Shown here one piece after another: positions 5,629 to 25,391 of a DNA stretch of 32,000 nt. Under the pieces are notes generated by a model. The model was not told the DNA's origin. It was given only the letters and a program-made list of their open reading frames with translations, and did not search any database. The stretch lies in contig NZ_FNHL01000001.1 of assembly GCF_900103715.1 (NCBI RefSeq), forward strand, positions 445,295 through 477,294, given 5' to 3'. The DNA is from Halogranum gelatinilyticum. GTDB taxonomy: Archaea > Halobacteriota > Halobacteria > Halobacteriales > Haloferacaceae. The position numbers and the translations under genes were made by a program. Numbering within the stretch: position 1 is the first letter of the stretch; each line of letters starts with the position of its first letter.

Positions 5629-5795
5629 GTACGCCGTCTTTCCCGTGGCCGCTTCTTTAGCGTTACCTTGTCGTTTCACGTCCGCACAGTGACCTCACTC
5701 TCGTCTCCCGTTCCCTGCGCCTTGCCGTGTGTCATACACCGAACTTTCGGCCGAAGACGAGACTCATCGCTTGTGAGGTAGGTTCGGGAAAATCA

Positions 5796-5868
5796 CGCCG
5801 TCGCCAGGACTCGAACCTGGGACCACCTCGTTAACAGCGAGGTGCTCTACCATCTGAGCTACGACGGC
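5796..5868 (-). tRNA. tRNA-Asn (GTT)
   Basis: A hand-folded 73-nt cloverleaf: acceptor GCCGTCG/CGACGGC, anticodon arm CCTCG-CTGTTAA-CGAGG, T arm CCAGG-TTCGAGT-CCTGG. Confidence 0.9.
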
Positions 5869-9418: not shown

Positions 9419-10857
9419 AACACGTCGTCGGCGTCGATGGTGCCGTCACGGAGCGTCCCGCGGACGGTCACCTCCTCGCCGAGTCGCAGTTTGGCGTCGG
9501 TCTTGACGCTCCGGGTCTTGGTTCCGTTGTCGAGGACGACCGGGTTCCCGGCCTGGACGACCGTCCCGGTGAACTCGACGTCCTCGCCGTCGGCGTCGGC
9601 CGTCTTCGTCGCGACCGCCGCTCCGCCAGCACCGCCTGCCGCGCTCTCGGCCTCGCTGTCGGCTCCGCCGTCGCTGCTGGAGTCACTCCCGAACGCGTCC
9701 AGCCCGCCCTGTCCGTTGCTCGCCGCGCCCGACGAGTCGTCGTTGAGACTGTCGCGCGTGACGCTCACGGTCGAACGCCAGCCCGCGGAGGCCTCCAGAT
9801 CCTCCTGCCAGCCGTCCTTGATCTCGACGTCCGTCAGCACGACGTGGTCCGCGAGGTCGACGTCGGTGTCGGCCTTCTCGCCCCACATCGCGACGCGGAT
9901 CTCGCCCGTCTCGTCTTTGACGCGGATATTGCGGACCTGTCCCTGCGAGCCGTCGTCGCGGTCGAAGGTGCGCTTGGGGTCCGTCTCGATGACACCGCCC
10001 GCGATGTCGACCGTCTGGCCGATCTCCAAGTCGCCGATGTCGGCGGTGTCGGGGACGTACTGGACCTCCTCGTCGAGTTCCTCGACCGCGCCGCGCGAGC
10101 CGACGTGGAGTTCCAGCGAGCCGTCGCGCTCGCGGACGTAGCCGTCGACGACCTCGACGGTGACGCCCGTGTCGAGTTCGTCGGCGCGGTCGGCCTGCTC
10201 GTCCCACAGCGTGACGCGGACGCGACCCGTCTCGTCGCCGACGGTCAGGTTGGCGACGCGGCCCTCGCTCCCGTCGTCGCGGTCGAACGTCCGGATTTCG
10301 GAGGTGTCGAGCACCTTCCCTTTGAGGTTGACGTCCGAGAGGCCGAGCGAGAGGTCCTCGACCTGGTAGGTGTCGAGCACTTGGACGTCCACCTCCTCGT
10401 CGGGAGCGGGCTCGGCCTTGTCGATGCTGACCTCGACGCCGTTGAAACCGTCCTTCGGGCGGCCCGCGATGCGGAGCACCTCGCCGACTTCGAGGCTGTC
10501 GACGACGTCGACGGCCATCCCGTCCCAGAAGGAGACGCGGACGCGACCCGTCTCGTCGGCGACCTCGACGTTGACGACGCGGCCGTCCTCGTCCTCGCCG
10601 TCGCGCTCGAAGGTGCGCAACTCGCCGACGCTGACGACCTTCGCGAGGAACTTCACCTCGTCCATGCCGGGTTCGATGTCGGCGATGCCGCTCACCTCGC
10701 CGCCCTGGTCTGTTAGCTCGTGGGCGATGAGCATCGCCGCCGTCTCGTCGTCCGCGAGCCCCCCCATCTGTTCGACTTTGTCCTGGACTGCAGCCTCGAA
10801 TTCCTCGAAAGAAACCTCCGTGTCGAGGTCTTCGTAGACGTCCTCTATCGCGCCCAT
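9415..10857 (-). CDS. rpa2: Replication protein A (single-stranded DNA-binding protein with multiple OB folds)
   Basis: About 480 aa with four internally repeated OB-fold units (recurring ...RTFDRDDGS.G.V.N..V.DETG.IRV..W...A). The start is taken at the ATG at 10857 (MGAIEDVYEDL). Synteny with the histone and hdaI genes is as remembered for Haloferax rpa2. Confidence 0.85.
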   Translation of the reverse strand: MGAIEDVYEDLDTEVSFEEFEAAVQDKVEQMGGLADDETAAMLIAHELTDQGGEVSGIADIEPGMDEVKFLAKVVSVGELRTFERDGEDEDGRVVNVEVADETGRVRVSFWDGMAVDVVDSLEVGEVLRIAGRPKDGFNGVEVSIDKAEPAPDEEVDVQVLDTYQVEDLSLGLSDVNLKGKVLDTSEIRTFDRDDGSEGRVANLTVGDETGRVRVTLWDEQADRADELDTGVTVEVVDGYVRERDGSLELHVGSRGAVEELDEEVQYVPDTADIGDLEIGQTVDIAGGVIETDPKRTFDRDDGSQGQVRNIRVKDETGEIRVAMWGEKADTDVDLADHVVLTDVEIKDGWQEDLEASAGWRSTVSVTRDSLNDDSSGAASNGQGGLDAFGSDSSSDGGADSEAESAAGGAGGAAVATKTADADGEDVEFTGTVVQAGNPVVLDNGTKTRSVKTDAKLRLGEEVTVRGTLRDGTIDADDVF

Positions 10858-11031
10858 AATCGTGTAGCCAAGCAAGGTGAGTGCGCGCTTAAGCGTTGTC
10901 CTTGCCGGGGTGGGTCCGCGCTGTCTGGTGGTTTTGAAGCCACGAATCGGCCTGTCGTACGCATAGACTGTCTAGCTTCGGTATGATTCAAAAAGGTTCG
11001 GCCGTCAGCGTCCGCGCCCGGCCCGCTCTCG

Positions 11032-11484
11032 TCACCGCTCGGCGGTCGCGACCGTCTCGCGCGAACCCATGCTGTCGTGGACGACGGTGACCGTCGCGGG
11101 GCGGTCGCCGTCGAACGTCACCGTCGCCTCGTACCCGCGCTGGACGAGTGCCTGCGTGCAGCCGTCGCCGCCCCGCGCTTCGGTGGTCACGACGACTTCC
11201 AGCGTCTCGCCATCCACCGTCACGTCGGCGAGGACGGGCTGGTGGCAGCCGTTCGGTCCCTGGATACAGCCGGTGACGACGACGGCGGCGTCGACGGCGA
11301 CGCTCGCTGTATTGGGAACCGAGCAGTCGCCGGTTGCGTCGAGTGTCGACGAGTCGACCGTCGGTGCCGACCCCGGCGACGGCGACCCGCCCGCCGTTCC
11401 GTCTCCCCCGCCACCTGCAGTACAGCCGCTCAGCCCGGTCGTCGTCGCCGTTGCGACTGCCGCGAGCACCGTTCGGCGGTTCAT
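11032..11484 (-). CDS. Hypothetical secreted lipoprotein (Tat-like signal, lipobox)
   Basis: The ORF 11032-11607 is trimmed to the ATG at 11484 (MNRRTVLAAVATATTTGLSGC). A Gly/Ser/Pro linker is followed by a Cys-containing beta-rich domain. No family is recognised. Confidence 0.6.
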   Translation of the reverse strand: MNRRTVLAAVATATTTGLSGCTAGGGGDGTAGGSPSPGSAPTVDSSTLDATGDCSVPNTASVAVDAAVVVTGCIQGPNGCHQPVLADVTVDGETLEVVVTTEARGGDGCTQALVQRGYEATVTFDGDRPATVTVVHDSMGSRETVATAER

Positions 11485-11722
11485 ATCCAGAGTTCGTCCG
11501 ATGATTGTAAACCGCTTGTGGCTGGTCAAAAGCAGCGTCGGGTGGGCGCGCACCCGCTCACCGAGCAGACTCGGACCCGGCTGACCGCGTCGATATCCCG
11601 CCGCCATCGTGCGGTTCCGTACCGTGTGTCCACTGTCTCATACGGCGTCTATACCGGGGCGTTTAAGTAAATGGGTGGGGTTGAATGAAATGGAAGCGCG
11701 GTGCGCCGCGTGGACGCACAAA

Positions 11723-11795
11723 GTCCTGGTAGGGTAGTGGACTATCCTCTTGGCTTGCGGAGCCAGGGACCGGAGTTCAAATCTCCGTCAGGACG
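11723..11795 (+). tRNA. tRNA-Arg (GCG)
   Basis: A hand-folded 73-nt cloverleaf: acceptor GTCCTGG/TCAGGAC, anticodon arm TTGGC-TTGCGGA-GCCAG, 4-nt variable loop, T arm CGGAG-TTCAAAT-CTCCG, discriminator G, followed by TTTT. Confidence 0.85.
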
Positions 11796-11891
11796 TTTTC
11801 GAGGGCACTAACACGACGAGCGAAGCGAGTCGTCAGTGCCCGTTTCGAGTCAAACACGGAGATTTGAGCAGGGAGCGGCTTCGCCGCGACC

Positions 11892-11916
11892 GAGTTCAAA
11901 TCTCCGTCAGGACGTT
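11892..11916 (+). repeat. Exact 25-nt copy of the tRNA-Arg 3' end (T-loop to discriminator plus TT)
   Basis: GAGTTCAAATCTCCGTCAGGACGTT is identical to 11773-11797 inside and just past the tRNA. Confidence 0.95.
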
Positions 11917-11968
11917 CACTTTCGTTCGCGACCTGACTTGCCCCACGCTCGCGTCCGCTCGCGTGAGA

Positions 11969-11984
11969 CTCCGTCAGGACGTTT
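11969..11984 (+). repeat. Exact 16-nt copy of the tRNA-Arg 3' end
   Basis: CTCCGTCAGGACGTTT is identical to 11783-11798. Confidence 0.9.
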
Positions 11985-12154
11985 CTCTCGGAAAACTACG
12001 CCCGCGAGAGACCTCTGTATCTCCCGATTCGCTGCTCACCGACATAGAGACCCATCGCTCGTTGGTGTCACCAACCCTGCGTCGGCAACGGGGCAAACTC
12101 GTGGGTCACGGATCAGCGAACTGTGCTGGGGGGACCCGATTCGGGGCGTCCGTG

Positions 12155-12409
12155 TCACTTCTCGCGACCGTGGCGTCGTCGCGAGGTCGACTGTTCGGGA
12201 GTCCTGCGGGTGATGCTCGGCCGCGTGGGACGCGTGGGACGCGTCGAGCGCGTGGGGGACGGCGAGAACCGGAGTCGTCGGCTCCGCTTCGGGGCGGGCT
12301 GTTGTTTCCCTTGCCACGCGCCGTGGCACTCGGGGCAGTAGTAGCCGTGGTAGCCGTTGCGGCTCAGATAGGTGTCGCCGCAGTCGATGCAGGTGGGATG
12401 GGTGGTCAT
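12155..12409 (-). CDS. Small zinc-finger protein (CxxC...CxxC) with a basic, repeat-containing tail
   Basis: From the ATG at 12409 it reads MTTHPTCIDCGDTYLSRNGYHGYYCPECHGAWQ..., with two Cys pairs as in haloarchaeal small CPxCG-type zinc-finger proteins. Codon bias is good over the finger. The tail (TRSTRPTRPTRP) is encoded by a 9-bp tandem repeat. Confidence 0.5.
   Translation of the reverse strand: MTTHPTCIDCGDTYLSRNGYHGYYCPECHGAWQGKQQPAPKRSRRLRFSPSPTRSTRPTRPTRPSITRRTPEQSTSRRRHGREK
12222..12257. repeat. 9-bp tandem repeat CGCGTGGGA, 4 units (2 exact, 2 degenerate)
   Basis: The units are cgcgtggga, cgcgtggga, cgcgtcgag and cgcgtgggg. The repeat lies inside the tail-coding part of the zinc-finger ORF. 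Confidence 0.85.
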
Positions 12410-12574
12410 CGACGAACACCCGAACGAGTCGTTCGAAGGGCTGTGCTTGCCATGTGTTATCACACAGGTAACTGTCGGTCACGCAGCTATATATGTATTC
12501 TCGTCATGTGCGTCGGGTACGGCCGTCCTACCGCCCGACGAGCGTATCACGGGGGTTTTGCCGACCGGTCCTCA

Positions 12575-13198
12575 ATGACCCGTATGGACGACGCACTCCG
12601 GGCTGGCGTCGCCGTCTACAACGTCGGCGAGTACCACGCGGCCCACGACGCCTGGGAAGACGAGTGGCTCGGGTTGGCCGACGGCACCGACGACGAGCGT
12701 CTCCTCCACGGACTGATTCAGTTCACCGCAGCCGTCTACCACGCCCGTCGGGGGAACTGGTCGGGGGCGACGGGGCTGGCCGAGAGTGCGGGCGAGTATC
12801 TCTCGGGGCTCCCGGCGACGTCCCACGGCGTCGACCTCGACGTCGTCCGCGACTATCTCGCTGCCCTCGAAGCCGACCCGGAACGTGTCGAGCGCGCTGC
12901 CCCGCCGAAACTGACCGTCGAGGGCGACGCCGTGACGCCGCGGGATCTCGACTTCGCGGCCGCCGCGTTGGCTGCCGAAATCGTCGCCGAAGAGTACGAC
13001 CGCTACGACGAATCAGTCGTCGCCGCCGGTATCGACTACGCTCGCGAAGAACTGGGAAGCGCGCAGACGCGCTTTATCACCTTCGTGATGGATTTCGCGG
13101 CCGACGTGGAGCACCGCGACATCATCTACCAGCGGCTCTCCGAACACGTCGAGCGACGGCAACACAAGAAACGCGACGTCGAAGGGCTGTTCGACTGA
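12575..13198 (+). CDS. DUF309 domain protein
   Basis: Only the C-terminal 207 codons of the 482-aa track ORF look coding. From the ATG at 12575 it reads MTRMDDALRAGVAVYNVGEYHAAHDAWEDEWL...LLHGLIQFTAAVYHARRGN, which is the DUF309 signature. Confidence 0.75.
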   Translation: MTRMDDALRAGVAVYNVGEYHAAHDAWEDEWLGLADGTDDERLLHGLIQFTAAVYHARRGNWSGATGLAESAGEYLSGLPATSHGVDLDVVRDYLAALEADPERVERAAPPKLTVEGDAVTPRDLDFAAAALAAEIVAEEYDRYDESVVAAGIDYAREELGSAQTRFITFVMDFAADVEHRDIIYQRLSEHVERRQHKKRDVEGLFD

Positions 13199-13207
13199 CT
13201 CACTAAC

Positions 13208-13987
13208 TCACTGATTCTTCGGGTGGTCCTCGAACTCTTTCGAGTTGTCGACCGGTTCGTAACCAAGGACCTCGCGAGCGCGGGAGATGTCGTAGTATTT
13301 CCGTTCGTTGTCGCTGATACCGTAGACGATCTCGTAGCCGTAGTCGGCGGTGAGACAGCAGTCGAAGAGTCGCGCACAGTCGCGGTAGGAGAGCCACATC
13401 GCCTGGCCGCGCTCGTAGTTCCACGGCGGATGGCCGCGCGTGAGGTTGCCGATACGGACGCAGACGACCGAGAGGTCGTAGTGGTCGTGGTAGTAGCGGC
13501 CGAGCGTCTCGCCGGTGGCCTTGCTGACGCCGTAGAGGTTGCTCGGACGGGGGAGTTCCGTCCCGTCGAGGCGGTAGTCGTCGTGTGGGCGGTACATGTC
13601 GGGGGTGCGCTCGTCGGTCTCGAAGGCGCCGACCGCGTGGTTCGAGGAGGCGAAGGCGACCTTGTCGACGTCGGCCTCGACGGCCGCCTCGAAGACGGTC
13701 TGTGTACCGTCGATGTTGTTGCGGAGCACGCTGTCCCACGGTGCTTCGGGCCGGGGGTCGCCCGCGAGGTGGATGATCGCACCGACGCCGTCGACGGCCT
13801 CGGCGACCGCCTCGTCGTCGGTCACGTCGGCGACGTAGACGGCGTCTGCGTCGACGCTCTCGGGGATCTTCTCTCGTGGGAGCGGTTCACGGTCGAGTAG
13901 TCGCCAGTCGTAGTCGTCGGCGAGGTCGCGTAGGATGGCCTGTCCAACGCGGCCGCCGGCACCCGTGAGGAGAACCGGGTCGTCCAT
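13208..13987 (-). CDS. NAD-dependent epimerase/dehydratase family protein
   Basis: The ORF is trimmed to the ATG at 13987 (MDDPVLLTGAGGRVGQ..., a Rossmann GxxGxxG). It has the YxxxK active-site region (LYGVSKATGE). Confidence 0.85.
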   Translation of the reverse strand: MDDPVLLTGAGGRVGQAILRDLADDYDWRLLDREPLPREKIPESVDADAVYVADVTDDEAVAEAVDGVGAIIHLAGDPRPEAPWDSVLRNNIDGTQTVFEAAVEADVDKVAFASSNHAVGAFETDERTPDMYRPHDDYRLDGTELPRPSNLYGVSKATGETLGRYYHDHYDLSVVCVRIGNLTRGHPPWNYERGQAMWLSYRDCARLFDCCLTADYGYEIVYGISDNERKYYDISRAREVLGYEPVDNSKEFEDHPKNQ

Positions 13988-14079
13988 TCGATTGCACATA
14001 CGACAGTGAGAGGGTAAGTAACGTCCGGTTCGCGCCAGCACTCGACAGAATTTAGCACGCCCCGTCCGACGGGACGGCC

Positions 14080-14436
14080 ATGCCGACAGACGCAGAGACC
14101 GCGTGTTTCGAGGCGGGCATCAAGTTCGGGACGCTCTATCACCAGTTCGCTGGCACGCCGGTCAGTCCGGCGTCGTCGCGGAGTCTGGAGACCGCGATGG
14201 CCGAGGCCATCGAGAACCAGCCGCACTGCGAAGCCGTCACGGTCGACATTCTCGATGATGCCCTCGAAGCCGAGCTGGCGGGCCAGTCGGCGGACTACAC
14301 CGAGCTCACGGGCCGGTTCATGGAGGTCGAGATGCGCATCGCCTACGAGGGTGTCACGGTCAACACCCGGATGGAGATGGAGGGCGACTATCCGCTGATG
14401 AAGCTCGTCTCCGTCGAGGACGCTCCAGACAACTGA
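14080..14436 (+). CDS. mptD: Archaeal dihydroneopterin aldolase-like protein (MptD family)
   Basis: 118-aa ORF. The N-terminal FEAGIKFGTLYHQFAGTPV matches my memory of the archaeal DHNA/MptD family signature. This has not been verified by search. Confidence 0.5.
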   Translation: MPTDAETACFEAGIKFGTLYHQFAGTPVSPASSRSLETAMAEAIENQPHCEAVTVDILDDALEAELAGQSADYTELTGRFMEVEMRIAYEGVTVNTRMEMEGDYPLMKLVSVEDAPDN

Positions 14437-14458
14437 TTTCACTTTCACTTTCGGGCGT

Positions 14459-14468
14459 GTTTTTAAAT
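14459..14468 (+). promoter_or_regulatory. TATA box for a leaderless transcript of the 14492 gene
   Basis: In GTTTTTAAAT, the TTTAAA at 14462-14467 lies 25-30 nt upstream of the ATG at 14492. Confidence 0.5.
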
Positions 14469-14491
14469 GCGGACCGGACGAACAGCGTGCC

Positions 14492-14971
14492 ATGAGTAGT
14501 CAGTCGACACTCGAGGACGACGACCTGTTCGGCGAAGCGGCGGCCGAGATGCGCGCGGACGTCGAAGAGCATCTCCAGCAGGCGTGGGACGAACTGCCGG
14601 ACAGCGACGACGTCTGGGATACCGAGGCTGACAACGTCCTCGGCGTACTCAACGGGCTTCGCTCGGCGTTGGACGCCGGTGACGCCGAGGACCATCTCCG
14701 ACAGGCGAAGAAGTGGTACACGATGGGCCAGCGCGCCGACGCCTTCGAGGACGCCGACGACCTCGCCGAGGAGATCGAGGCCGTCGAGGAGGTCATCGAG
14801 ATGCTCGCCGACGCCCGCGAACAGGTGGGCGGACTGACGAGCACGATGCCGCAGCTCCGCGGCGCGCTCGACGAGGCGATGGAGCGTGACGACGACGACG
14901 AAGAGGAGGAGGAAGAAGAGGTCGACGCGGACGAAGAAGACGAGGAAGACGAGGAAGACGAAGAAGAGTAA
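14492..14971 (+). CDS. Hypothetical highly acidic protein with a poly-Asp/Glu C-terminus
   Basis: 159-aa ORF with strong halophile codon and amino-acid bias. The tail is DDDDEEEEEEEVDADEEDEEDEEDEEE. No family is recognised. Confidence 0.65.
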   Translation: MSSQSTLEDDDLFGEAAAEMRADVEEHLQQAWDELPDSDDVWDTEADNVLGVLNGLRSALDAGDAEDHLRQAKKWYTMGQRADAFEDADDLAEEIEAVEEVIEMLADAREQVGGLTSTMPQLRGALDEAMERDDDDEEEEEEEVDADEEDEEDEEDEEE

Positions 14972-14972
14972 C

Positions 14973-15710
14973 TCAGCGGTGGTCCGGTCGGCGGACGTCT
15001 CTTTTCGCGACGGCATCGAGCAGTTTCACGAGCGACGCCGTCGCCAGCGTCAGCAGCTCCTCGCCACGCTCGGTGTCGCCCTCGGCCGGGTCGCCGACGA
15101 CGCCGTTCTCGGAGAACTCCGCGGAGTCGTGGGCGAGGTTGACCCGCGAGACCCACTCGCCCCAGCCGTCAGCCGCGCCCTCGCGGGCTTCGTCGAGACG
15201 GTCCTCCTGGACCAACTCGGGCGCGAGATGTCGGAGCATCGCCGTCTCCAGCGGGCCGCCGTGACCCATGTCCGAGGAGTGCTCGCCGACCGACTCGAAC
15301 CAGGTGAAGGCGACGGCGTAGGCGTCGTCGTGACGGCTGATGGTCCCCGTGACCTCGCGGAGCGCGTCGACGTTGCCGCCGTGGCCGTTGACGACGACGA
15401 CCCGGTCGAAACCGTGGTGGGCGAGGCTCTGGACCGTCTCGCGCACGTAGTCGCGGAAGGTCTCGGGTGAGACCCAGAGCGTCCCGGTGAACTGGCGATG
15501 TTCCTCGGCGACGCCGACAGGGATGGCGGGAGCGACGACGACCTCTTCGTCGTACGCCTCGGCGGCCGCGTCGGCGACGGCAGTGGCAGTGAGAGTGTCC
15601 GTGCCGAGCGGGGCGTGTGGCCCGTGCTGTTCGGTGCTGCCGACGGGGAGAAGCGCGAGGTCCGTGTCGCAGTCGTCGACGTCGGTCCACGTGGCGTCCG
15701 CGAGATGCAT
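14973..15710 (-). CDS. Creatininase-family amidohydrolase (ArfB-like)
   Basis: 245-aa ORF. The N-terminus LALLPVGSTEQHGPHAPLGTD and the internal VVVNGHGGN are creatininase-family motifs. Confidence 0.8.
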   Translation of the reverse strand: MHLADATWTDVDDCDTDLALLPVGSTEQHGPHAPLGTDTLTATAVADAAAEAYDEEVVVAPAIPVGVAEEHRQFTGTLWVSPETFRDYVRETVQSLAHHGFDRVVVVNGHGGNVDALREVTGTISRHDDAYAVAFTWFESVGEHSSDMGHGGPLETAMLRHLAPELVQEDRLDEAREGAADGWGEWVSRVNLAHDSAEFSENGVVGDPAEGDTERGEELLTLATASLVKLLDAVAKRDVRRPDHR

Positions 15711-15775
15711 ACCGGCGGAAGGTGGGCGACGGGTTTGTAACCCGCGGTCGTCGTCGGGAGACGGGAGATGTCGGG

Positions 15776-17722
15776 TTAGTCGTCCTGTGCCTCGGTCCGG
15801 GCCTGCCGCCGACTCGCCCGCTCGATGAACTCCTCGGGGAGTTCGTCGATTTCGCCGGCCTGCACGCCCCAGAGATGTGCGTAGAGACCGTCCTCGGCGA
15901 GCAGGTCGTCGTGGCCGCCGCGTTCGACGATGCGGCCGTCTTCGAGGACGACGATCTGGTCGGCGTCCTTGATTGTCGAGAGGCGGTGGGCGATGGAGAA
16001 GGTCGTCCGGTTTTTGGTCAGGCGGTCCAGCGACCGCTGGATGAGCATCTCCGTCTCGGTGTCGACGTCGGAGGTGGCCTCGTCGAGCACGAGGATCTCG
16101 GGGTCCTTGAGGATGGCGCGGGCGATGGAGAGCCGTTGACGCTGGCCGCCCGAGAGTTTCACGCCGCGTTCGCCGATTTCGGTGTCGTAGCCCTCGGGGA
16201 GGTTTTGGATGAACTCGTGGGCCTCGGCGGCCTTCGCGGCCTCGACGATGTCGTCGTCGCTGGCGTCGAAGGTCCCGTAAGCGATGTTCTCCTTGACCGT
16301 CCCGTAGAACATGAACGTCTCCTGGCTGACGTAGCCGATGGCCTGTCGGAGGCTGGGGATGGTCACGTCTCGCAGGTCCTGGCCGTCGACGCTGATGGCT
16401 CCCTCGTCGACGTCGTACATCCGCAAGAGGAGTTTGAGTACGGTCGACTTACCCGCTCCCGTCGGGCCGACGAGCGCGAGCGTGTCGCCGCCGTCGACGG
16501 TGAAGGAGATGTCCTCGATAATGGGGTCCGCGTCGTCGTCGCCGTAGGCGAACGAGACGTCGTCGTACTCGACGCGGCCGCGGGAGACGACGAGGTCCTC
16601 AGCGTTGGGGTCCTCGGCGATGCGCGACGGTTCGTCCATCAGGCCGAAGATGCGGGCACTGGAGGCACGGGCACGCTGGTACATGTTGATGATCTGCCCG
16701 AACTGCGCCATCGGCCAGATGAACTGCTGGGTGAGCAGGATGAACGTGACGAACTGCCCCTCCGAGAGGTCGCCGGTGAGCGGGCCGGGGCCGGTACCGT
16801 TGATGACCCACAGGCCGCCGACGAAGAAGGTCACGGCGAAGCCGATTCCCGCGATGATGCGGAGGGCAGGGAAGAACTTGATGCGGGTGTTGATGGCGTC
16901 CCAGTTGGCGTCGAAGTAGCCCATCGAGGAGTCGTCGACGCGGTCGGACTCGAAGTCCTCCGTGTTGGAGGTCTTGATGACCTGGATGCCGCCGAGGTTG
17001 TTTTCCAATCTCGAGTTGAGCTGTCCCACGGAGGAGCGAACTTCGCCGTACTTCGGCTGGATAATCTGGACGAACTTCCAGGTGAACAGTGCGATGAGCG
17101 GGACGGGCACGAGCGCGATGAGCGCGAGTTGCCAGTTGTAGGAGAAGAGGATGGCCGCGATGGCGAGCACCATCACCGACAGGCGGAAGAAGGAGTTCAT
17201 CCCGTCGTTGAGGAACCGCTCCAGGCGGTTGACGTCGTTCGAGAGGATAGACATCATCTCGCCGGTCTGCTTGTCGGCGAAGAAGTCCATGTTCAGCCGC
17301 TGCATCTTGTCGTACGTGTCGGTCCGGATGGCGTGCTGGATGTTCTGCGCGAAGGAGTTCCAGCCCCAGTTGCGGATCCAGTGGAAGGCCGCGCCGCCGA
17401 AGAAGCCGACCACGATGAGACCGATGGCGAAGTAGAACTGGCCGATCTCCGTCGCGGGGACGAACGGTTCGACCCACGCGGTCGGCAGGACGGGCAGTGC
17501 CTCGGCGAAGGACTTCTCGTCGCGGAAGACGGCGTCGACGGCGACGCCGAGGATGACCGGCGGGATGAGGTCGAGGACACGGGCGGCGACGCTCGCGAGG
17601 AACCCGACCACGAACTGGAAGACGTTGTCGCCCCCGTACTCCGAGAAGAGTCGGCGCATGGGGTTTTCGGCCCGTTCGCGTTGGGCTTCGAACGGGTCGT
17701 CTTCGTCGGTGGAGAGACTCAT
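15776..17722 (-). CDS. ABC exporter with fused permease and ATPase (MsbA/MDR type)
   Basis: 648-aa ORF. A six-TM N-terminal domain is followed by Walker A GPTGAGKST, the signature LSGGQRQR and Walker B ILVLDEATS. Confidence 0.9.
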   Translation of the reverse strand: MSLSTDEDDPFEAQRERAENPMRRLFSEYGGDNVFQFVVGFLASVAARVLDLIPPVILGVAVDAVFRDEKSFAEALPVLPTAWVEPFVPATEIGQFYFAIGLIVVGFFGGAAFHWIRNWGWNSFAQNIQHAIRTDTYDKMQRLNMDFFADKQTGEMMSILSNDVNRLERFLNDGMNSFFRLSVMVLAIAAILFSYNWQLALIALVPVPLIALFTWKFVQIIQPKYGEVRSSVGQLNSRLENNLGGIQVIKTSNTEDFESDRVDDSSMGYFDANWDAINTRIKFFPALRIIAGIGFAVTFFVGGLWVINGTGPGPLTGDLSEGQFVTFILLTQQFIWPMAQFGQIINMYQRARASSARIFGLMDEPSRIAEDPNAEDLVVSRGRVEYDDVSFAYGDDDADPIIEDISFTVDGGDTLALVGPTGAGKSTVLKLLLRMYDVDEGAISVDGQDLRDVTIPSLRQAIGYVSQETFMFYGTVKENIAYGTFDASDDDIVEAAKAAEAHEFIQNLPEGYDTEIGERGVKLSGGQRQRLSIARAILKDPEILVLDEATSDVDTETEMLIQRSLDRLTKNRTTFSIAHRLSTIKDADQIVVLEDGRIVERGGHDDLLAEDGLYAHLWGVQAGEIDELPEEFIERASRRQARTEAQDD

Positions 17723-17824
17723 TACACACTCGCCGAGGCGAGCGGGGAAAAGCCATTCCCTACGAACCGAAACAGATCGGTACGGCGTTCGGCAACCGGC
17801 GTCGCTTCGGGTGGACCCAGCGTG

Positions 17825-18091
17825 CTACACTACTCGCGACTCGACCTCGGGGTCGACTCCGGCTTCGGCCAAGTCCTGGCGAATCCGCGTCCTGAGAGGG
17901 TCGGGAACGGTATCGCGGCCGACTGGCACGGCGGTCTCTCCGTCACCCTTCACCTTCCAGTAGAGGACGCAGTCGCTCGGTTCGTAATACTCGATACTGT
18001 AGTGGTCGTCGGCACCGCGGTAGTGGACGCGCGCGGCGAACCCTTCGGCCTGCCAGCCATCGAGGGCGGCGAGTGCCTCGGCGTTGCTCAT
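17825..18091 (-). CDS. Small hypothetical protein
   Basis: 88-aa ORF with typical codon bias and acidic composition. No family is recognised. Confidence 0.5.
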   Translation of the reverse strand: MSNAEALAALDGWQAEGFAARVHYRGADDHYSIEYYEPSDCVLYWKVKGDGETAVPVGRDTVPDPLRTRIRQDLAEAGVDPEVESRVV

Positions 18092-18128
18092 ACGTCGGCT
18101 CGGTTCGCCAGACAGGAGGGGGTTTCGG

Positions 18129-18647
18129 TCACTCCTCGCTCGTCTCTCGGTCGGCGATTTCGACGGTGTCGCCGACTTCGATGCCGTAGTCGGTCGTGTA
18201 GTCGTACGGGACTTCGAGGACGTACTTCCCAGTGCCGCGGTACCGCGTCAGGTCGTCGTCCTGCTCCTCCAGCGGTGCGTGGTGGATGGCCGTGATGGTG
18301 CCGTTGGCGTCGATGAAGACGATGTCGATGGGGAAGGCCATGTCCCGCATCACGTAGGCGTGGTCGCCTTCGGCGTCGTGGACGAACAGCATCCCCTCGT
18401 CGGTGTCGAGCGATCCGGTGTCGCTCAGGCCCGTATAGCGCTTCTCGAAGGTGTCGGCGATGCGGACGTCGACGGTCGCGAGCGTGTCGCCGTCAGCGTC
18501 GTCGACGACGGTGACCGTGGTTCGATCGTAGTCGCTCCCGGACAGGTAGCCGAGGTCGTACGCGGCGACGCCGCCGACGGCGAGGACGAGGACGACGGCA
18601 AGGGCGAGCGTAGTCCGTGAGGGCATACGAGAAACGACGTGCGACAC
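18129..18647 (-). CDS. DUF192 domain protein with an N-terminal membrane anchor or signal
   Basis: GMLFVHDAEGDHAYVMRDMAFPIDIVFIDANGTITAIH is the DUF192 (COG1430) core. The start could instead be the internal Met at 18626. Confidence 0.75.
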   Translation of the reverse strand: MSHVVSRMPSRTTLALAVVLVLAVGGVAAYDLGYLSGSDYDRTTVTVVDDADGDTLATVDVRIADTFEKRYTGLSDTGSLDTDEGMLFVHDAEGDHAYVMRDMAFPIDIVFIDANGTITAIHHAPLEEQDDDLTRYRGTGKYVLEVPYDYTTDYGIEVGDTVEIADRETSEE

Positions 18648-18710
18648 GGGAGTAAGCGTTCCGGAGCAGAAAGTAACCGTTATGAGTCGCGGCCGGATTT
18701 GTCGTGGTAC

Positions 18711-18784
18711 GGGCTCGTGGTCTAGCTGGTTATGACGCGGCCTTTACAAGGCTGAGATCGGTGGTTCGACTCCGCCCGAGCCCA
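18711..18784 (+). tRNA. tRNA-Val (TAC)
   Basis: A hand-folded 74-nt cloverleaf: acceptor GGGCTCG/CGAGCCC, anticodon arm CGGCC-TTTACAA-GGCTG, T arm GGTGG-TTCGACT-CCGCC, discriminator A. Confidence 0.9.
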
Positions 18785-18885
18785 CTTCTGCCGACACAAT
18801 ACGACGAGCGCAGCGAGGAGTCTGTGTCGGCTGGGTGGGCGACGCGGGGCGAACCCTGCAAGACGAACGTAGTGAGTCTTGCTCC

Positions 18886-18907
18886 GGTTCGACTCCGCCC
18901 GAGCCCA
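18886..18907 (+). repeat. Exact 22-nt copy of the tRNA-Val 3' end (copy 2)
   Basis: GGTTCGACTCCGCCCGAGCCCA is identical to 18763-18784. The 5' half of the T stem is not conserved, so this is not a functional tRNA. Confidence 0.95.
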
Positions 18908-19002
18908 TGATTCTGTGGCGAACAGCGTGAGTCCAGAATCATCTACGTGAGTGGTAGAGTCGAAGCAGGGAACGAAACGAGCGACGCGAGTGGAGTGACC
19001 GC

Positions 19003-19024
19003 GGTTCGACTCCGCCCGAGCCCA
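19003..19024 (+). repeat. Exact 22-nt copy of the tRNA-Val 3' end (copy 3)
   Basis: GGTTCGACTCCGCCCGAGCCCA is identical to 18763-18784 and 18886-18907. The three copies are 123 and 117 bp apart. Confidence 0.95.
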
Positions 19025-19149
19025 TCAGATTTTGTGACGAACCGAACGGTGAGTCACAAATCTGTGCCGAGAGAGCGGTCCAATCCCACAAGACGAACCA
19101 CCGACCGGAGAGAAAACACCTTAGTCCGGTCGCTGTGGCAAGGTAAACG

Positions 19150-20964
19150 ATGACAGACTCCGACCGAGAGGGAGCACACCAGGACGCCGACGCCCACGGG
19201 AGCGACGTCCCCGCCACAGGCGAGGTCGTTCCGGATATGTTCTCCTCGGACCAGGTGTTCCAGCGTATCGTCATGGACGCGGACCACGAAATCACCTCCA
19301 GCGTCCGCGAGCTCTTCTTCGCGGCCGTCGCCGGGGGCTTTGCGATCACCATCACGTATCTGTTGTACGCGTCGATGACCGCCAAGACCGGCGGATCTAT
19401 CGCCGCCGTCTTGCTGTATCCCCTCGGTTTCATCTACATCATCATCGGCGGCTACCAGCTCTACACCGAGAACACGCTCCCGCCGGTGGCGTTGACACTG
19501 GAGCGTCTCGCCAGCGTCCCGAGACTGCTCCGACATTGGCTGGTCGTGCTCGCGGGCAACTTCACCGGCGGGGCAATCGGTGCCGTCGTGCTCGCCTACG
19601 GCGAAGTGTTCAGCCCCGAAGCCGCGGCGGTCGCCGCCGACCTGGCACAGAAGGGCATCGCGACGTCGCCGACGGCACTCTTCTTCAAAGGTGCCTTCGC
19701 CGGGCTGATCGTCGCCGGTGTCGTCTGGATGAACTTCGCGGCCCGCGACACCGTCTCGCGGGTGCTCATCGTCTATCTCGCGTTCCTGGCGATCCCGCTC
19801 GGAAATCTCTTTCACGTCGTCGTCTCCTTCACCGAGTCGGTTTATCTGATGCTCGTCGGCGGTCCCGGTCTCTTCGTCTCGATGACTGAGTTCGTCATCC
19901 CCGTCTTGCTCGGTAACACCATCGGCGGCGTCCTGTTGGTCACCGTCGTCAACTACTACCAGACCAGCGAACGCCGTCTCGACGTCGAGCACTTCGAGAA
20001 CGTCCGTCGGCTCTCGACCAGAGAGTGGCTGCTCGGGAACCTCGCGGGCCGGTCGTACGTCCCCGTCGTCGACACGCTCGGCGATTTCGTCCGTGACCCC
20101 GACTCCTTCCGTATCCTGGTCCCGGTCGCGAACCCCCGGACAGAGGGCCCCATCGTGGAGTTCGCCTGCGCGCTTGCGAGCGTCCACGAGAAGAGTACCG
20201 TCCACGCCGTCCACATCGTCCAGACGCCCTCTCGGGTCTCACCCAAGGCAGACGGTCACCACCGTCGCATCCTCCGGGAGTCCGCCGACCTCATGGACGA
20301 CGTCGAACGGCGCGTCGAGGGCTACGACGTCAACTTCGAGACCTCGACCATCGTCTCCTCGCGCTCGTTCGAGGAGGTCTTCGACCGCGCGCGTCGGACG
20401 CGTCCCGACCTCGTCGTCATCGGCTGGGGCGACGACCGCCTGTGGAACGCCGCCCGCGCGGAACGGCCGCTCGACGAGCTGACCAACCGGCTGCCCTCGG
20501 ACTTCCTCGTGGTCAAAGACCGCGGACTGGACACCTCGCGCGTGCTCCTGCCGACGGCCGGTGGACCGGACTCCGGTCTCAGTGCCGACGTCGCTCGGGC
20601 GCTTCAGTCGTCCGTCGGAGCCGAGGTGTCGCTGCTCCACGTCGTCGGCCGCGGCGAGCGCGAGGCGGGCGAGGCGTTCCTCGCCGACTGGGCGGCCGAA
20701 CAGGGTCTCGACGACGCGACGCAGTTCGTCGACGACTCCGGCGACGTCGAAGCGGCGATCAAGCGCGCGGCCGACGACCACTCGCTGGTGCTCATCGGCG
20801 CGACCGAGCGCGGACTCCTCTCGCGACTCGTCACGGACTCGCTCCATCTCGACGTCGTCAACGAGGTCGACGCCTCGGTCTTGCTGGCCGAACGCCCCTC
20901 CAGTCGGCCGCTGACCGAGCGGCTGTTCGGCCGCGGCCGCCGCGAGAAACGGAAACGGCCGTGA
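19150..20964 (+). CDS. Formate/nitrite transporter (FNT) family channel fused to two universal stress protein (UspA) domains
   Basis: 604-aa ORF. The N-terminal roughly 280 aa is a polytopic FNT-like domain (GGFAITITYLL..., LAGNFTGGAIG, LGNTIGGVLLV). The C-terminal half holds two USP-like units (FRILVPVANP...VHIVQ and RVLLPTAGGPDS...LLHVV). Confidence 0.75.
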   Translation: MTDSDREGAHQDADAHGSDVPATGEVVPDMFSSDQVFQRIVMDADHEITSSVRELFFAAVAGGFAITITYLLYASMTAKTGGSIAAVLLYPLGFIYIIIGGYQLYTENTLPPVALTLERLASVPRLLRHWLVVLAGNFTGGAIGAVVLAYGEVFSPEAAAVAADLAQKGIATSPTALFFKGAFAGLIVAGVVWMNFAARDTVSRVLIVYLAFLAIPLGNLFHVVVSFTESVYLMLVGGPGLFVSMTEFVIPVLLGNTIGGVLLVTVVNYYQTSERRLDVEHFENVRRLSTREWLLGNLAGRSYVPVVDTLGDFVRDPDSFRILVPVANPRTEGPIVEFACALASVHEKSTVHAVHIVQTPSRVSPKADGHHRRILRESADLMDDVERRVEGYDVNFETSTIVSSRSFEEVFDRARRTRPDLVVIGWGDDRLWNAARAERPLDELTNRLPSDFLVVKDRGLDTSRVLLPTAGGPDSGLSADVARALQSSVGAEVSLLHVVGRGEREAGEAFLADWAAEQGLDDATQFVDDSGDVEAAIKRAADDHSLVLIGATERGLLSRLVTDSLHLDVVNEVDASVLLAERPSSRPLTERLFGRGRREKRKRP

Positions 20965-21054
20965 CCGGCGCGACTCCCCCAGCTGTGCGGTCTGCGGCTG
21001 CCGTAACCGCGCAGGATGGCGTTGTGCCTCTCCGCCGATGTGCGGGGCCGTAGC

Positions 21055-21097
21055 GGCCATCGAGGCCATCAGGGCCATCCGGACTCTCGTGGCCATC
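21055..21097. repeat. Short GGCCATC repeat, 3 tandem 9-bp units plus 1 spaced copy
   Basis: The sequence is ggccatc ga ggccatc ag ggccatc cggactctcgt ggccatc, in the intergenic region after the FNT-USP gene. Confidence 0.7.
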
Positions 21098-21173
21098 AGA
21101 CATTTACTCCGACAGACCCGAATCCGGGTATGGATAGTTGGGAGAGGCATCTTCGGGCAACGGAAGGAGACAG

Positions 21174-21749
21174 ATGACGAGCAAGACAGCCGTCTTCGGT
21201 GTCGTCTTGCTCGTCGTCACCGGCGGGCTCGCGGGCGCGTTCGCCCTCGGCGTCAACCCGATCGACATCATCTCTAGTCCGACTTCCAACGGCAGTGTCG
21301 GCGGCGATACCGGCGGCACCAGTGACACCGGCGACACGGCTTCGGACGGCAGCTCCACGGGTGACACGGGGTCCAGCAGCGAGACGGACAACAGTACAGC
21401 CGACAGCGGGAGCGACACGCCGAGCTTCTCCTTCGTCGTCCAGAACATCGAAGAGTGCGGGACGACCTGCCGTGACGTGACCGTGGCGGCGACGAACCAG
21501 ATGGACGACACGGCGACGAACGTCGAGGTCGAGACGGTCATCTCCGCCGACGGCGACCAGCTCTGGACGGGAACGGAGTCCTTCACGGAAGTCGACGCTG
21601 GCGAGAGCAAGACCCGGACGAAGCGTGTCAAACTGGGGTATCTCGAAGCCGCGAAGGTACAGAACAACGACGGCTACATCACCGTCACGACCACCATCAC
21701 GTGGGACGGCGGCGAACAGACGTTCAGCGAACGCCGAAAAGTCGCATAA
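21174..21749 (+). CDS. Hypothetical membrane-anchored extracellular protein with a Ser/Thr/Gly/Asp-rich linker
   Basis: The ORF is trimmed to the ATG at 21174 (MTSKTAVFGVVLLVVTGGLAGAFALG), which is preceded by GGAAGGAGA. A low-complexity TGDTxS linker is followed by a beta-rich domain. Confidence 0.6.
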   Translation: MTSKTAVFGVVLLVVTGGLAGAFALGVNPIDIISSPTSNGSVGGDTGGTSDTGDTASDGSSTGDTGSSSETDNSTADSGSDTPSFSFVVQNIEECGTTCRDVTVAATNQMDDTATNVEVETVISADGDQLWTGTESFTEVDAGESKTRTKRVKLGYLEAAKVQNNDGYITVTTTITWDGGEQTFSERRKVA

Positions 21750-21808
21750 GGCGCGGCGGTTCAATTCCGAAATCCTTTTCCAACAGTCCGGCATCGGTTT
21801 GGGTGTAA

Positions 21809-21882
21809 GCCGCCTTAGCTCAGACTGGGAGAGCACTCGACTGAAGATCGAGCTGTCCCCGGTTCAAATCCGGGAGGCGGCA
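21809..21882 (+). tRNA. tRNA-Phe (GAA)
   Basis: A hand-folded 74-nt cloverleaf: acceptor GCCGCCT/AGGCGGC, anticodon arm CTCGA-CTGAAGA-TCGAG, T arm CCCGG-TTCAAAT-CCGGG, discriminator A. Confidence 0.9.
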
Positions 21883-22018
21883 TCATTCTACGGCCGACTA
21901 CGTGAACGAGCGGAGCGAGTGAGCCGCCGGCCGGGACGATACGACGAGAGCGGATTTGAATCAGACGAGTCGCAGTGCCGAGCGAAGCGAGGCGACCGTC
22001 TCGGCGATGTTCACAATT

Positions 22019-22032
22019 CGGGAGGCGGCATC
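22019..22032 (+). repeat. 14-nt exact copy of the tRNA-Phe 3' end, followed by T5
   Basis: CGGGAGGCGGCATC is identical to 21871-21884. With one mismatch the match extends to AAT(C/T)CGGGAGGCGGCATC. TTTTT lies at 22036-22040. Confidence 0.8.
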
Positions 22033-22145
22033 CCTTTTTGCCCTGAACCTCGCTCGAGGGAAGACACCGCATTACAGCGATTTGGCCCCCCTTCGGCCGA
22101 TTAGCTTTCATCCCTAATTCACTCGCGTTAGTTCCGAATCAACGC

Positions 22146-22769
22146 TTAGTCGTCGGTCACCAACACTGCTCCGCGCATCCCAAGGAGGTTGTAATCGAAC
22201 CCACTCTCATCGCGGAACGGGTAGCCGTGCGGGGAGCAGTAGTAGAGGTTCGTTCCCACCTCTTCGAAGGTAAATTCGTACGATTTGTCATCGCCTGCCA
22301 GGAACATCTCGCTGGCGAACTTGTGGGTACCTCCATCTTTTTCGAGGGATGCGACATCGTGCGGCCATGGCGCGTCCACGGGGAATCCAAACGGATTGGA
22401 TGGCCACGGTTCACCAGTCCAGACCCATTTCACCTTCGTCCCAGGTGAGACCTTGACTACACGAGGGGAGAACGCAAAGGGCCCCACCTGACCCGGAGGT
22501 GCTCCCGGAAGATCGATCGAGGTGATCGTGCCGACTTCCACCTCGACTGTTCCCTTCCCCGTCTGGTCAGAGATACCGCCACTCCAGATTGGGGGTTTCT
22601 TGAATTGGGCTTTGTCGTTCAAGAACGCCCCGATGCCGTTGCCATTCCCGAACCCTCGGCCTCGGCCTCGGCCCGCGCTTGCAGCACCACTGAAGAGGAC
22701 GGCTCCTGCGACACCTGTTCCGAGGGTTTTCAATACGTTTCGCCGATTTACTCGTGGTACTTTTTCCAT
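22146..22769 (-). CDS. Halocyanin-like type-1 copper (cupredoxin) protein with a Tat signal
   Basis: The ORF is trimmed to the ATG at 22769 (MEKVPRVNRRNVLKTLGTGVAGAVLFSGAASA). The cupredoxin pattern is FSPRVVKVSPGTKVKWVW...PHDV...YYCSPH...GMRGAVLV. G+C is visibly lower than in neighbouring genes. Confidence 0.7.
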   Translation of the reverse strand: MEKVPRVNRRNVLKTLGTGVAGAVLFSGAASAGRGRGRGFGNGNGIGAFLNDKAQFKKPPIWSGGISDQTGKGTVEVEVGTITSIDLPGAPPGQVGPFAFSPRVVKVSPGTKVKWVWTGEPWPSNPFGFPVDAPWPHDVASLEKDGGTHKFASEMFLAGDDKSYEFTFEEVGTNLYYCSPHGYPFRDESGFDYNLLGMRGAVLVTDD

Positions 22770-25255: not shown

Positions 25256-25301
25256 GAGGGAAGATAGTTCTCTACAGGCTTGTAGTTCCCTACCCATTCG
25301 G

Positions 25302-25391
25302 CTCGTCGCGTCCGTCGCGTCCGTCGCGCCCGTCGCGTCCGTCGCGCCCGTCGCATTCATCGCGCCTGTCGCGCTCGTCACACCTGTCGTG
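25302..25391. repeat. 9-bp tandem repeat (YCCGTCGCG), 10 units
   Basis: The units are ctcgtcgcg, tccgtcgcg, tccgtcgcg, cccgtcgcg, tccgtcgcg, cccgtcgca, ttcatcgcg, cctgtcgcg, ctcgtcaca and cctgtcgtg. The array lies between divergent genes. Confidence 0.9.

Follow-up and report, generated by a model that had tools for sequence, protein, structure and literature searches.

Arrays of tRNA-tail copies and capped hairpins behind haloarchaeal tRNA genes: candidate non-coding cassettes with junctions in the T-loop

tRNA genes are classic landing sites of mobile DNA, and the sequence behind them is usually treated as scar tissue. In 1978 Egan and Landy reportedly found, at the Escherichia coli tyrT locus, a 178-bp unit repeated 3.14 times, each from the last 19 nt of tRNA-Tyr. 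Integration at the T-loop sublocation of a tRNA gene gives an identity block that begins at the T-loop (Williams 2002, as relayed in PMC8371274). In Prochlorococcus, tycheposons that arrive at a tRNA gene displace the earlier ones distally, and partial tRNAs build up (10.1101/2020.12.28.424599). Here we analyse a stretch of 32,000 nucleotides from the archaeon Halogranum gelatinilyticum (contig NZ_FNHL01000001.1; hereafter the window, with positions counted from its first letter), in which copies of the 3' end of a tRNA-Val gene follow that gene as an array of hairpin-bearing units. The pattern appears to be widespread in salt-loving archaea and apparently undescribed: a full-text search of the literature, itself of incomplete coverage, found no description of such arrays. 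We propose, at not quite an even chance, that the units are non-coding cassettes made and shuffled by site-specific recombination at T-loop-derived sites, and that their hairpins are selected as read-through terminators or insulators.

The 22-mer GGTTCGACTCCGCCCGAGCCCA, which forms the 3' end of tRNA-Val(TAC), occurs in the window in three exact copies (starts at 18763, 18886 and 19003), all on the + strand, and nowhere else; in 100 dinucleotide shuffles there was no match even with 3 mismatches, and the expected number is 0. The distance from copy to copy is 123 and then 117 nt. An earlier note, made from the letters alone, had described these three tail copies, a hairpin after each of them with further hairpins at 18858-18882 and 19085-19138, and an inverted 8-nt piece of the T-loop at 18957-18964. 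Exact search and shuffles bear out the copies, stem search and folding find the hairpins where they had been placed, and the inverted piece is an exact reverse complement. The note was also right that the 5' half of the T stem is not kept in the copies (see below), and its estimate that the array ends about 125 bp before the next gene is close to the mark, since copy 3 ends at 19024 and the gene starts at 19150, 126 nt later. This gene, a formate/nitrite transporter fused to a universal stress protein domain (FNT-USP), lies outside the array but would receive any read-through. Unit 1 folds with -62.1 kcal/mol (z = -4.2 against shuffles) and unit 2 with z = -2.2.

What does a unit consist of? 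The units of the window and of the comparison loci (denoted by L numbers) span 67-195 nt, with a median of 123 nt and an interquartile range of 110-140, and all are non-coding. In order, each holds a T-rich, terminator-like start, a hairpin (H1), a linker, an inverted piece of the T-loop and T-stem, the interior of a second hairpin (H2) and a direct copy of the last 21-25 bases of the tRNA, which run from G52/53 to the discriminator. This start of the copy is invariable: all 35 units keep G53, and none of the 35 keeps tRNA positions 49-51. From G53 to the discriminator, 21 nt, the copy is perfect in 23 of 37 distinct units. The sequence directly 5' of the copy boundary is conserved whatever the tRNA, and reads ...AG[T/A]CGCAG...[A/C]CGTCT[T/C]N5GG^TTC in a long class and GACCGTGG^TTC in a short class (^, 5' edge of the T-loop); GTCT stands at -12 to -9 in about 20 of 35 units, and two covarying versions of the stem, GAAG/CTTC and CGAG/CTCG, are found 8 times each. 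The inverted piece, located 25-64 nt before the copy, matches exactly over at least 7 nt in 31 of 37 units, and its longest match averages 8.3 nt to the cognate tRNA, compared with 4.0 nt to non-cognate T-arms and 1.5 nt in direct orientation. In predicted folds it pairs with the next direct copy, so that the pseudo-T-arm is sequestered in a long hairpin. Since the basal arms in the H2 alignment are out of register, RNAalifold retrieves no more than a core of 6 pairs from it. Different tRNAs are followed by shared H2 types, and by an identical 24-nt interior, with arms specific to each tRNA, and some interiors are flipped. In all 4 informative arrays it is the distal copy that is degenerate. 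Older trailing copies (L026, L052, L073, L015 and window 22010-22030) carry one extra base inside the T-loop, in the forms TTCGTAAT, TTCAACAT/TTCAACGT, TTCGACAT and TTCACAAT, with the last 12-15 nt perfect.

The hairpins carry a cap, CGA[G/A]C-NNN-G[C/T]GAG, which was found 34 times in sense and 3 times in antisense orientation, at 7.3 per kb compared with a background of 0.048 per kb. Its inner pairs covary (GC/GC 27, AC/GT 7), its triloop is GNA in 28 of 34 cases, and among 2x2 internal loops (tandem mismatches) there are 55 GA/GA against 5 TC/TC. Because caps and GA mismatches are strand-specific, the hairpins are shaped on the tRNA-sense single strand, be it as RNA or as single-stranded DNA. 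Other measures gave less: sense and antisense folding energies discriminate weakly with RNA parameters (24 of 37) and not at all with DNA parameters, G·U counts from minimum-energy folds are ambiguous, and a simple test for a hairpin within 12 nt (55/70, against 220/350 in shuffles) shows no excess in this GC-rich DNA. At least 3 T fall within the next 6 nt after 42 of 61 tRNA ends or copies; the commonest unit starts are TTTTC, TTCTG and TTTCT, with TTTTC the most frequent. A T-stretch followed by C is an experimentally verified terminator in Haloferax volcanii, where two RNA 3' ends have also been mapped downstream of a tRNA-Pro (PMC7237163). By this sequence pattern most copies are followed by a putative terminator. 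The same capped hairpins also stand ahead of hairpin and T-run terminators in ordinary mRNA 3' regions.

Several of these features would suit a host-encoded module of the tRNA 3' flank that has no dedicated recombinase, the main rival to our proposal, which we consider possible although doubtful. The native flank would combine a capped hairpin with a T-stretch and an anti-T-arm piece; arrays would expand and contract by unequal crossing-over, slippage and gene conversion between the repeats, aided by the polyploidy of haloarchaea and their frequent inter-species recombination; and serial terminators and hairpins would be selected to stop read-through from the tRNA promoter and to fold away the decoy 3' end. 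The sense-strand caps, their presence before mRNA terminators, the T-stretch after most copies and the two RNA 3' ends behind the H. volcanii tRNA-Pro (PMC7237163) all favour such a module. It leaves unexplained, however, why, in 10 or more types of tRNA, every copy has its exact start at G52/53, and why a tRNA-independent consensus lies directly 5' of that point. Moreover, a terminator needs no copy of a tRNA tail, and H2 types common to different tRNAs, with arms that are specific to each, are not what a host module would lead one to expect.

We compared orthologous tRNA-Val loci, with the divergent upstream DUF192 gene as synteny anchor. The close relative L205 (DUF192 gene 90% identical in nucleotides to that of the window, tRNA-Val identical) has no trailing copy: its tRNA-Val is followed directly by H1b, 98% identical to the H1 of window unit 2, then by an inverted piece and the flank. 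As unit 1 is missing there as an exact block, it represents in the window an indel of precisely 123 nt, in register with the 22-mer. Another indel between these two loci starts at the inverted piece. L069, a more distant relative with the same 22-mer, has one unit, composed of the window H1a (47/62) and H2b (30/45), and here the difference is an indel in the frame of the inverted piece. Halogranum amylolyticum has a single unit of H1b and H2b (84% to window unit 2), H. rubrum has a first unit of H1b and H2x and a second of H1y and H2b, and a Haloferax sp., from another genus, has one unit of H1z and H2x. With the same tRNA-Val tail, the copy number is thus 0 in L205, 1 in L069 and 2 in the window, whose terminal flank can be aligned with those of L069 and L205. 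Related halves are 81-98% identical, while unrelated halves align at 59-67%. H2x is 98% identical between H. rubrum and the Haloferax sp., whereas the adjacent coding gene is 68% identical. The T-loop reads TTCGAAT in the Halogranum comparison loci and TTCGACT in the window, both trailing copies track the tRNA, and in the orthologous H2b the inverted piece has changed to compensate, from ATTCGAA to AGTCGAA.

These combinations and identities indicate that half-units assort independently of one another and that their junctions are the direct copy and the inverted piece. As read from the aligned loci, the comparison shows arrays that break and rejoin at the direct and inverted T-loop pieces: whole units are gained or lost beside the tRNA in the frame of the 22-mer, blocks of H2, copy and H1 are gained or lost in the frame of the inverted piece, and there is exchange of half-modules across genera and of H2 types across tRNAs. 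By the same comparison, window unit 2 is the ancient, distal unit and unit 1 the younger, tRNA-proximal one. The resemblance of half-units between loci would reflect purifying selection or lateral exchange, probably both. For a host module, these loci cut both ways. Half-units conserved beyond the adjacent coding gene and the compensatory change in the inverted piece are in its favour, as are H1 and an inverted piece without any copy (in L205, in L013 and upstream in L120) and locus L039, with its three near-identical 103-nt units. On the other hand, the repeats available for homologous exchange are just 8-25 nt long, and three independent indels join at the short inverted piece and not at the longer, perfect 22-mer.

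The tRNA-Val gene is not alone in this respect. The window holds two further arrays, behind tRNA-Arg(GCG) and tRNA-Phe(GAA), and all three have in common the caps and an inverted copy of the cognate T-loop and T-stem; on both strands of the 32 kb, 7 of 8 occurrences of the cap motif fall inside the three arrays, on the tRNA strand. At least one recognisable tail copy follows 10 of 15 haloarchaeal tRNA genes in a set that was not chosen via the hairpin. A metagenome scan with one hairpin 19-mer gave 115 loci, in which about 27 of 37 tRNAs have 1-4 trailing copies, a frequency that is overstated because the sample is biased by its 19-mer; the positives include tRNAs other than those picked by the scan (Glu, Leu). 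Altogether, tRNAs of at least 10 amino-acid classes bear the pattern, in several genera including Halogranum, Haloferax, Halobellus, Natrinema and Natronorubrum. It is present and unannotated in cultured Natronorubrum and Natrinema genomes, and Halobellus loci reached via the FNT-USP gene have the same layout behind tRNA-Val and tRNA-Phe. The 19-mer GACGAGCGAAGCGAGTCGT is also found in very GC-rich (0.70-0.76), clearly non-haloarchaeal soil-metagenome contigs (L022, L048, L050, L079, L083, L087, L096 and L106), where it is part of a different, GATC-bounded repeat (the 19-mer with GGGGGAGGGGCCCTGCCGG...CCCCCTTTGGATC), which at L022:3260-3377 forms a 33-nt tandem array.

To describe the specificity of H2, we built a covariance model from 16 long-class sequences and ran it on 211 kb of haloarchaeal DNA not chosen via the hairpin. 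All 8 matches with E<0.05 lie at most 300 nt downstream of a tRNA gene and on its strand. Those outside the training set include both Val units (18843-18899, E = 5e-4, and 18954-19016) and tRNA-Arg unit 1 (11857-11906); the tRNA-Phe unit, matched at 21950-22021, belongs to the training set. In the metagenome loci the model gave 43 matches, in tRNA flanks wherever a tRNA is visible. Rfam, searched over 11000-22500 at E<=1, returned tRNAs only, besides three chance-level matches, and no family for the units.

Could the units have come from viruses or plasmids? None of 2.9 million viral contigs contained an exact copy of the Val 22-mer, the Arg 21-mer, the Phe 20-mer or the H1 19-mer, and the 74 matches there to a 15-mer across the H2 junction were all coding or chance. 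BLAST of the array against a phage collection and plasmids (the latter partly covered) gave tRNA-level matches only. The earlier note had suggested serial att duplication or a family of mini-elements of about 120 bp with the tRNA 3' end as their target. This idea is partly supported: comparable units do follow other tRNA genes, Arg and Phe in the window and many elsewhere, the unit length is conserved, the copy number does vary among close relatives, and the spacers have no viral match that would make them provirus remnants, so that none of the refutations it had named has materialised.

Mobile DNA does occur at the same tRNAs. Tyrosine integrases (Pfam PF00589) are encoded at unit-bearing tRNAs in L069 and L120. 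In L069 (7602-13482, also in L065) an island with a GmrSD restriction enzyme, a fragment of a C5 cytosine methylase and two tyrosine integrases (40% identical mutually; the L120 integrase, 55% identical) is integrated at a short tRNA-Val tail copy and has a hairpin unit downstream of it. In L120 (4961-6335, the same as L098) a low-GC block of 1.37 kb with small open reading frames (ORFs), one of them for a membrane-like protein of 92 aa, lies between H1 with an inverted piece and a degenerate tRNA-Phe tail, and a decayed H2 follows 400 nt further on; the segment may be a unit that carries cargo. Between the integrase and the tRNA-Phe gene of L120 there is a small zinc-ribbon ORF as well as another tRNA-tail copy with H1. 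In L015 (6549-6686) a 55-nt insert splits the T-loop of a tRNA-Phe-like pseudogene (anticodon AAA) after GTTC. The insert holds two capped hairpins and is flanked on both sides by GTTC direct repeats, and a normal unit follows the pseudogene, to 6836. Both copies have the 8-nt loop variant TTCACAAT, which is also found in the tRNA-Phe copy of the window.

Such loci raise the possibility that the arrays are scars of kilobase-sized integrated plasmids or proviruses, in which the repeats would be attL and attR and the spacers element ends left after internal deletion. We regard this as highly improbable. Integrated elements are typically recognised by direct repeats of a tRNA 3' part, and both the integrase islands at the same tRNAs and the L120 block with its decayed H2 would agree with it. 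However, independent deletions should give random sizes, and the tight distribution of unit lengths therefore counts against scars; so do the single architecture across 37 units, the conservation of modules at orthologous loci between genera and the lack of a match in the phage collection or the 2.9 million viral contigs. In addition, the islands that are present use a different and shorter identity block.

Haloarchaea use tRNA-like elements as tRNase Z signals, as in the processing of H. volcanii 5S rRNA. An array might then be a polycistronic precursor of small RNAs, cut at the pseudo-3' ends by tRNase Z or another enzyme to give RNAs of about 120 nt with a seed of 7-8 nt from the acceptor strand. 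Hairpins specific to the sense strand would suit such a precursor, and in predicted folds only the 3' strand of the acceptor is single-stranded between H2 and the next H1. The same folds, however, bury in H2 the T-loop that processing enzymes recognise, and a unit has no 5' acceptor strand for a minihelix; as modelled, the units lack the acceptor helix on a T-arm and the free T-loop of a tRNA-like processing element. Each copy is also followed by a T-stretch of the terminator type, which should leave distal units with little transcription. Furthermore, copies decay in some lineages while hairpins persist, and Rfam finds tRNAs only. For these reasons a small-RNA precursor seems a remote prospect.

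How would recombination at the T-loop build such arrays? A unit has two halves: half A, the tRNA copy from G52/53 to the discriminator with a T-stretch of the haloarchaeal terminator kind and H1, and half B, the inverted copy of the cognate T-loop and T-stem 3' strand followed by the H2 interior. Crossovers would be made by a tyrosine-type site-specific recombinase that acts in trans on GG^TTCRAAT sites, with a putative element-side half-site (CGTCT[T/C]N5GG or GACCGTGG) just 5' of the T-loop. Each new unit would supply a working tRNA 3' end and a terminator and would push older copies distally, in the manner of tycheposons, and there they would decay. The hairpins, with their tandem G·A pairs and GNA triloops, would be kept by selection to stop or insulate read-through from the strong tRNA promoter, and they might also keep the decoy 3' end from misfolding the pre-tRNA. 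In favour of this proposal, the copy boundary at G52/53 gives the identity block expected for T-loop integration, and the element-side sequence is conserved whatever the tRNA. It also accords with the generality of the arrays, with the gain, loss and reshuffling of units and half-units between relatives, with the distal place of ancient and degenerate copies, with the joint change of T-loop, trailing copies and inverted piece, and with the T-stretches and strand-specific caps. The tyrosine integrases at L069 and L120 and the split pseudogene of L015 likewise count for it.

Several points weigh against this proposal. Pfam identifies no integrase or other recombinase among the ORFs that flank the three window arrays, and neither five scans of viral contigs nor the phage collection yielded a free or viral attP-like form. 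A double-stranded circle of 100-150 bp is a poor recombination substrate. The islands of L069 and L120 are kilobase-sized and separate from the units, with proximal att copies of 13-16 nt and the units beyond them. The observed rearrangements could all be obtained by homologous or microhomology recombination between repeats, and the near-identical units of L039 look like plain tandem duplication. A selected host function would fit the conservation of H1b and H2b above the neighbouring coding gene as well or better, and the capped hairpins are no mark of a mobile element, since ordinary mRNA 3' regions have them as well. The bias of the metagenome sample belongs here too.

An integron-like cassette system of Halobacteria, with the universally conserved tRNA T-loop (GG^TTCRAAT) as entry and a dedicated recombinase reading a CGTCT/GACCGT half-site, appears unlikely. 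Units would move as folded single strands or by double crossover between the direct and the inverted T-loop site, and kilobase cargo, as in L120, would occasionally sit in the H2 apex. The H2 arms, an imperfect palindrome of inverted and direct T-loop pieces, do not match the integron consensus. There is nevertheless a real chance that the arrays are not tRNA-anchored att arrays and are instead either such a system of their own or a host module of the tRNA flank.

The features of the window are collected in Table 1.

Table 1. Coordinates of the three arrays, their parts and the neighbouring genes in the window
Feature	Position	Strand	Remarks
Upstream DUF192 gene, divergent from tRNA-Val	18129-18626	-	Pfam PF02643
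tRNA-Val(TAC)	18711-18784	+	Rfam RF00005, 62 bits; ARAGORN gives 18711-18785; final 22 nt, 18763-18784, are copy 1
Val unit 1, 123 nt	18785-18907	+	younger, tRNA-proximal; starts T-rich, CTTCT
Unit 1 hairpin H1a	18790-18831	+	cap CGAGC-GCA-GCGAG; 9 bp perfect stem 18790-18798/18823-18831
Unit 1 inverted T-arm piece GCGGGGCGAACC	18844-18855		pairs with copy 2; overlooked in the earlier note
Unit 1 H2a apex hairpin	18858-18882	+	cap CGAAC-GTA-GTGAG; seen in fold
Unit 1 trailing copy (copy 2)	18886-18907	+	22-mer search
Val unit 2, 117 nt	18908-19024	+	ancient, distal; 22-mer search, folding, covariance model
Unit 2 hairpin H1b	18907-18942	+	cap CGAAC-AGC-GTGAG; 9 bp perfect stem 18907-18915/18934-18942; linker 3' of H1b
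Unit 2 inverted T-loop piece GAGTCGAA	18957-18964		exact reverse complement of TTCGACTC
Unit 2 H2b interior	18965-19002	+	G·A zipper; cap CGAGC-GAC-GCGAG
Unit 2 trailing copy (copy 3)	19003-19024	+	22-mer search
Terminal flank	19025-19149	+	TCAGATTTTG T-run, two hairpins, then ATG of next gene; fold z = -3.9
Flank H1-type hairpin	19026-19064	+	cap CGAACCGAACGGTGAG; inner stem 19031-19044/19047-19060
Flank degenerate direct T-loop-like GGTCCAATCC	19077-19086	+	
Flank hairpin	19099-19135	+	stem 19099-19109/19125-19135
Downstream FNT-USP gene	19150-20964	+	Pfam PF01226 and PF00582
tRNA-Arg(GCG) array	11723-11981	+	tRNA 11723-11795; fold z = -7.75
Arg unit 1, 119 nt, hairpin H1	11803-11841	+	cap CGAGC-GAA-GCGAG
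Arg unit 1 inverted piece ACGGAGATTTGA	11856-11867		
Arg unit 1 trailing copy	11892-11914	+	perfect 23 nt of tail, 119 nt downstream
Arg unit 2, 67 nt, inverted acceptor piece	11929-11937		antisense-oriented cap; 13-nt copy 11969-11981
tRNA-Phe(GAA) array	21809-22030	+	tRNA 21809-21882; single 148-nt unit
Phe unit capped hairpins	21907-21919 and 21979-21991	+	positions are those of the caps
Phe unit inverted piece CGGATTTGAA	21951-21960		
Phe unit degenerate copy TTCACAATTCGGGAGGCGGCA	22010-22030	+	148 nt downstream; last 12 nt perfect; 1-nt T-loop insertion

Some further observations concern the neighbourhood. The order tRNA-Val, FNT-USP, tRNA-Phe (window 18711-21882) is common to Halobellus clavatus (L006 9514-12385), where the FNT-USP gene is inverted relative to the two tRNA genes when compared with the window. 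In a synteny search with FNT-USP the closest matches were from Salinigranum, where the gene has no neighbouring tRNA. Downstream of tRNA-Asn (5796-5868), at 5691-5720 on the - strand, the window has the H2-like sequence GCAGGGAACGGGAGACGAGAGTGAGGTCAC with no recognisable copy of the tRNA-Asn tail, which may be a decayed unit; tRNA-Met (5554-5628) has no such H2-like sequence. Elsewhere, three repeats of 321 nt, 70-78% identical, lie within one long ORF (9857-10587), and the 9-nt tandem repeat GTCCGTCGC is present in 6-7 copies within another ORF (25301-25372).

A number of other identities were considered and rejected. Against a CRISPR-like array, the spacers are homologous modules conserved across genera and the hairpins resemble ordinary 3'-end hairpins of haloarchaeal transcripts; no CRISPR repeat passes the Rfam threshold, and a weak match to CRISPR-DR29 at 21972-22017 (E = 0.66) is just the apex hairpin of the tRNA-Phe unit. 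A miniature element of the MITE type or derived from an insertion sequence (IS) would not be confined to tRNA 3' flanks, as the matches in the 211 kb are, and the repeat is 21-25 nt and not a duplication of 2-10 nt. That length is also too great for the target-site duplication of a casposon or the like, and the unit ends are without terminal inverted repeats. Palindromic elements of the IS200/IS605 type make no target duplication. The geometry does not fit a T-loop intron with a bulge-helix-bulge motif, a kink-turn or K-loop would have a 3-nt bulge beside G·A pairs, which is missing here, and there are neither core motifs nor an Rfam match for a hairpin or hammerhead ribozyme.

The supposed scars behind these tRNA genes are thus ordered, conserved across genera above the level of a neighbouring protein gene, present behind most tRNA genes sampled and reshuffled at defined points. 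If a recombinase drives them, they would be a new class of very small integrative cassettes and natural landing pads in model haloarchaea. If they are integron-like, every tRNA gene would be a potential platform for gene capture. If the host maintains them, they would add to the architecture of tRNA genes a layer not described before, one in control of read-through and of pre-tRNA folding, in organisms that are not known to have an exosome. In practice, the units are unannotated in public genomes and will mislead island-finders that rely on partial tRNAs as att sites, and they are directly testable in Haloferax.

Finally, how do the units compare with the systems they most resemble? Like islands and proviruses that integrate at tRNA genes, they have a direct repeat equal to the tRNA 3' part from the T-loop, a regenerated tRNA and a distal push, and integrases are found at some of the tRNAs that carry them. 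They differ in that they measure 100-150 nt, hold no gene or integrase, have a fixed two-hairpin architecture with an inverted copy of the target, and are conserved at orthologous loci across genera and found at the majority of tRNA genes, not just at some hot spots. With integron arrays, whose attI sites and imperfectly palindromic attC sites recombine as folded single strands, they share a fixed entry point, strand-specific features that are not Watson-Crick, and units that are added, lost and reordered. The imperfect palindrome at the unit end, with inverted and direct arms of the crossover site around a variable centre, may also recall attC, and its arms contain AAC and GTT triplets as in integron R'' and R' sites. 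However, there is no adjacent integrase of the IntI type and no Pc promoter, the units have no ORF, and the entry would be the T-loop of a tRNA, with many such loci in each genome. At E. coli tyrT, copies of a tRNA 3' end likewise lie directly downstream at a fixed period, in a region that holds the terminator. There the spacers are near-identical tandem repeats at one locus, while the haloarchaeal spacers differ from one another, contain conserved hairpins and an inverted T-arm piece, and are found at different tRNAs and in several genera. CRISPR arrays also have short identical repeats (22-25 nt) at a regular period, with newer units apparently at one end, but the haloarchaeal spacers are 80-130 nt long, structured and mutually homologous, the repeat is a tRNA tail, and there are neither cas genes nor a leader. 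REP and BIME elements and haloarchaeal terminators resemble the units in being stable hairpins, specific to one strand, that cluster behind transcription units at their 3' ends. REPs, however, are dispersed, and their stems have a conserved sequence within a genome, whereas here just the caps and some basal stems are conserved and the H2 family is confined to tRNA flanks and tied to the tails.

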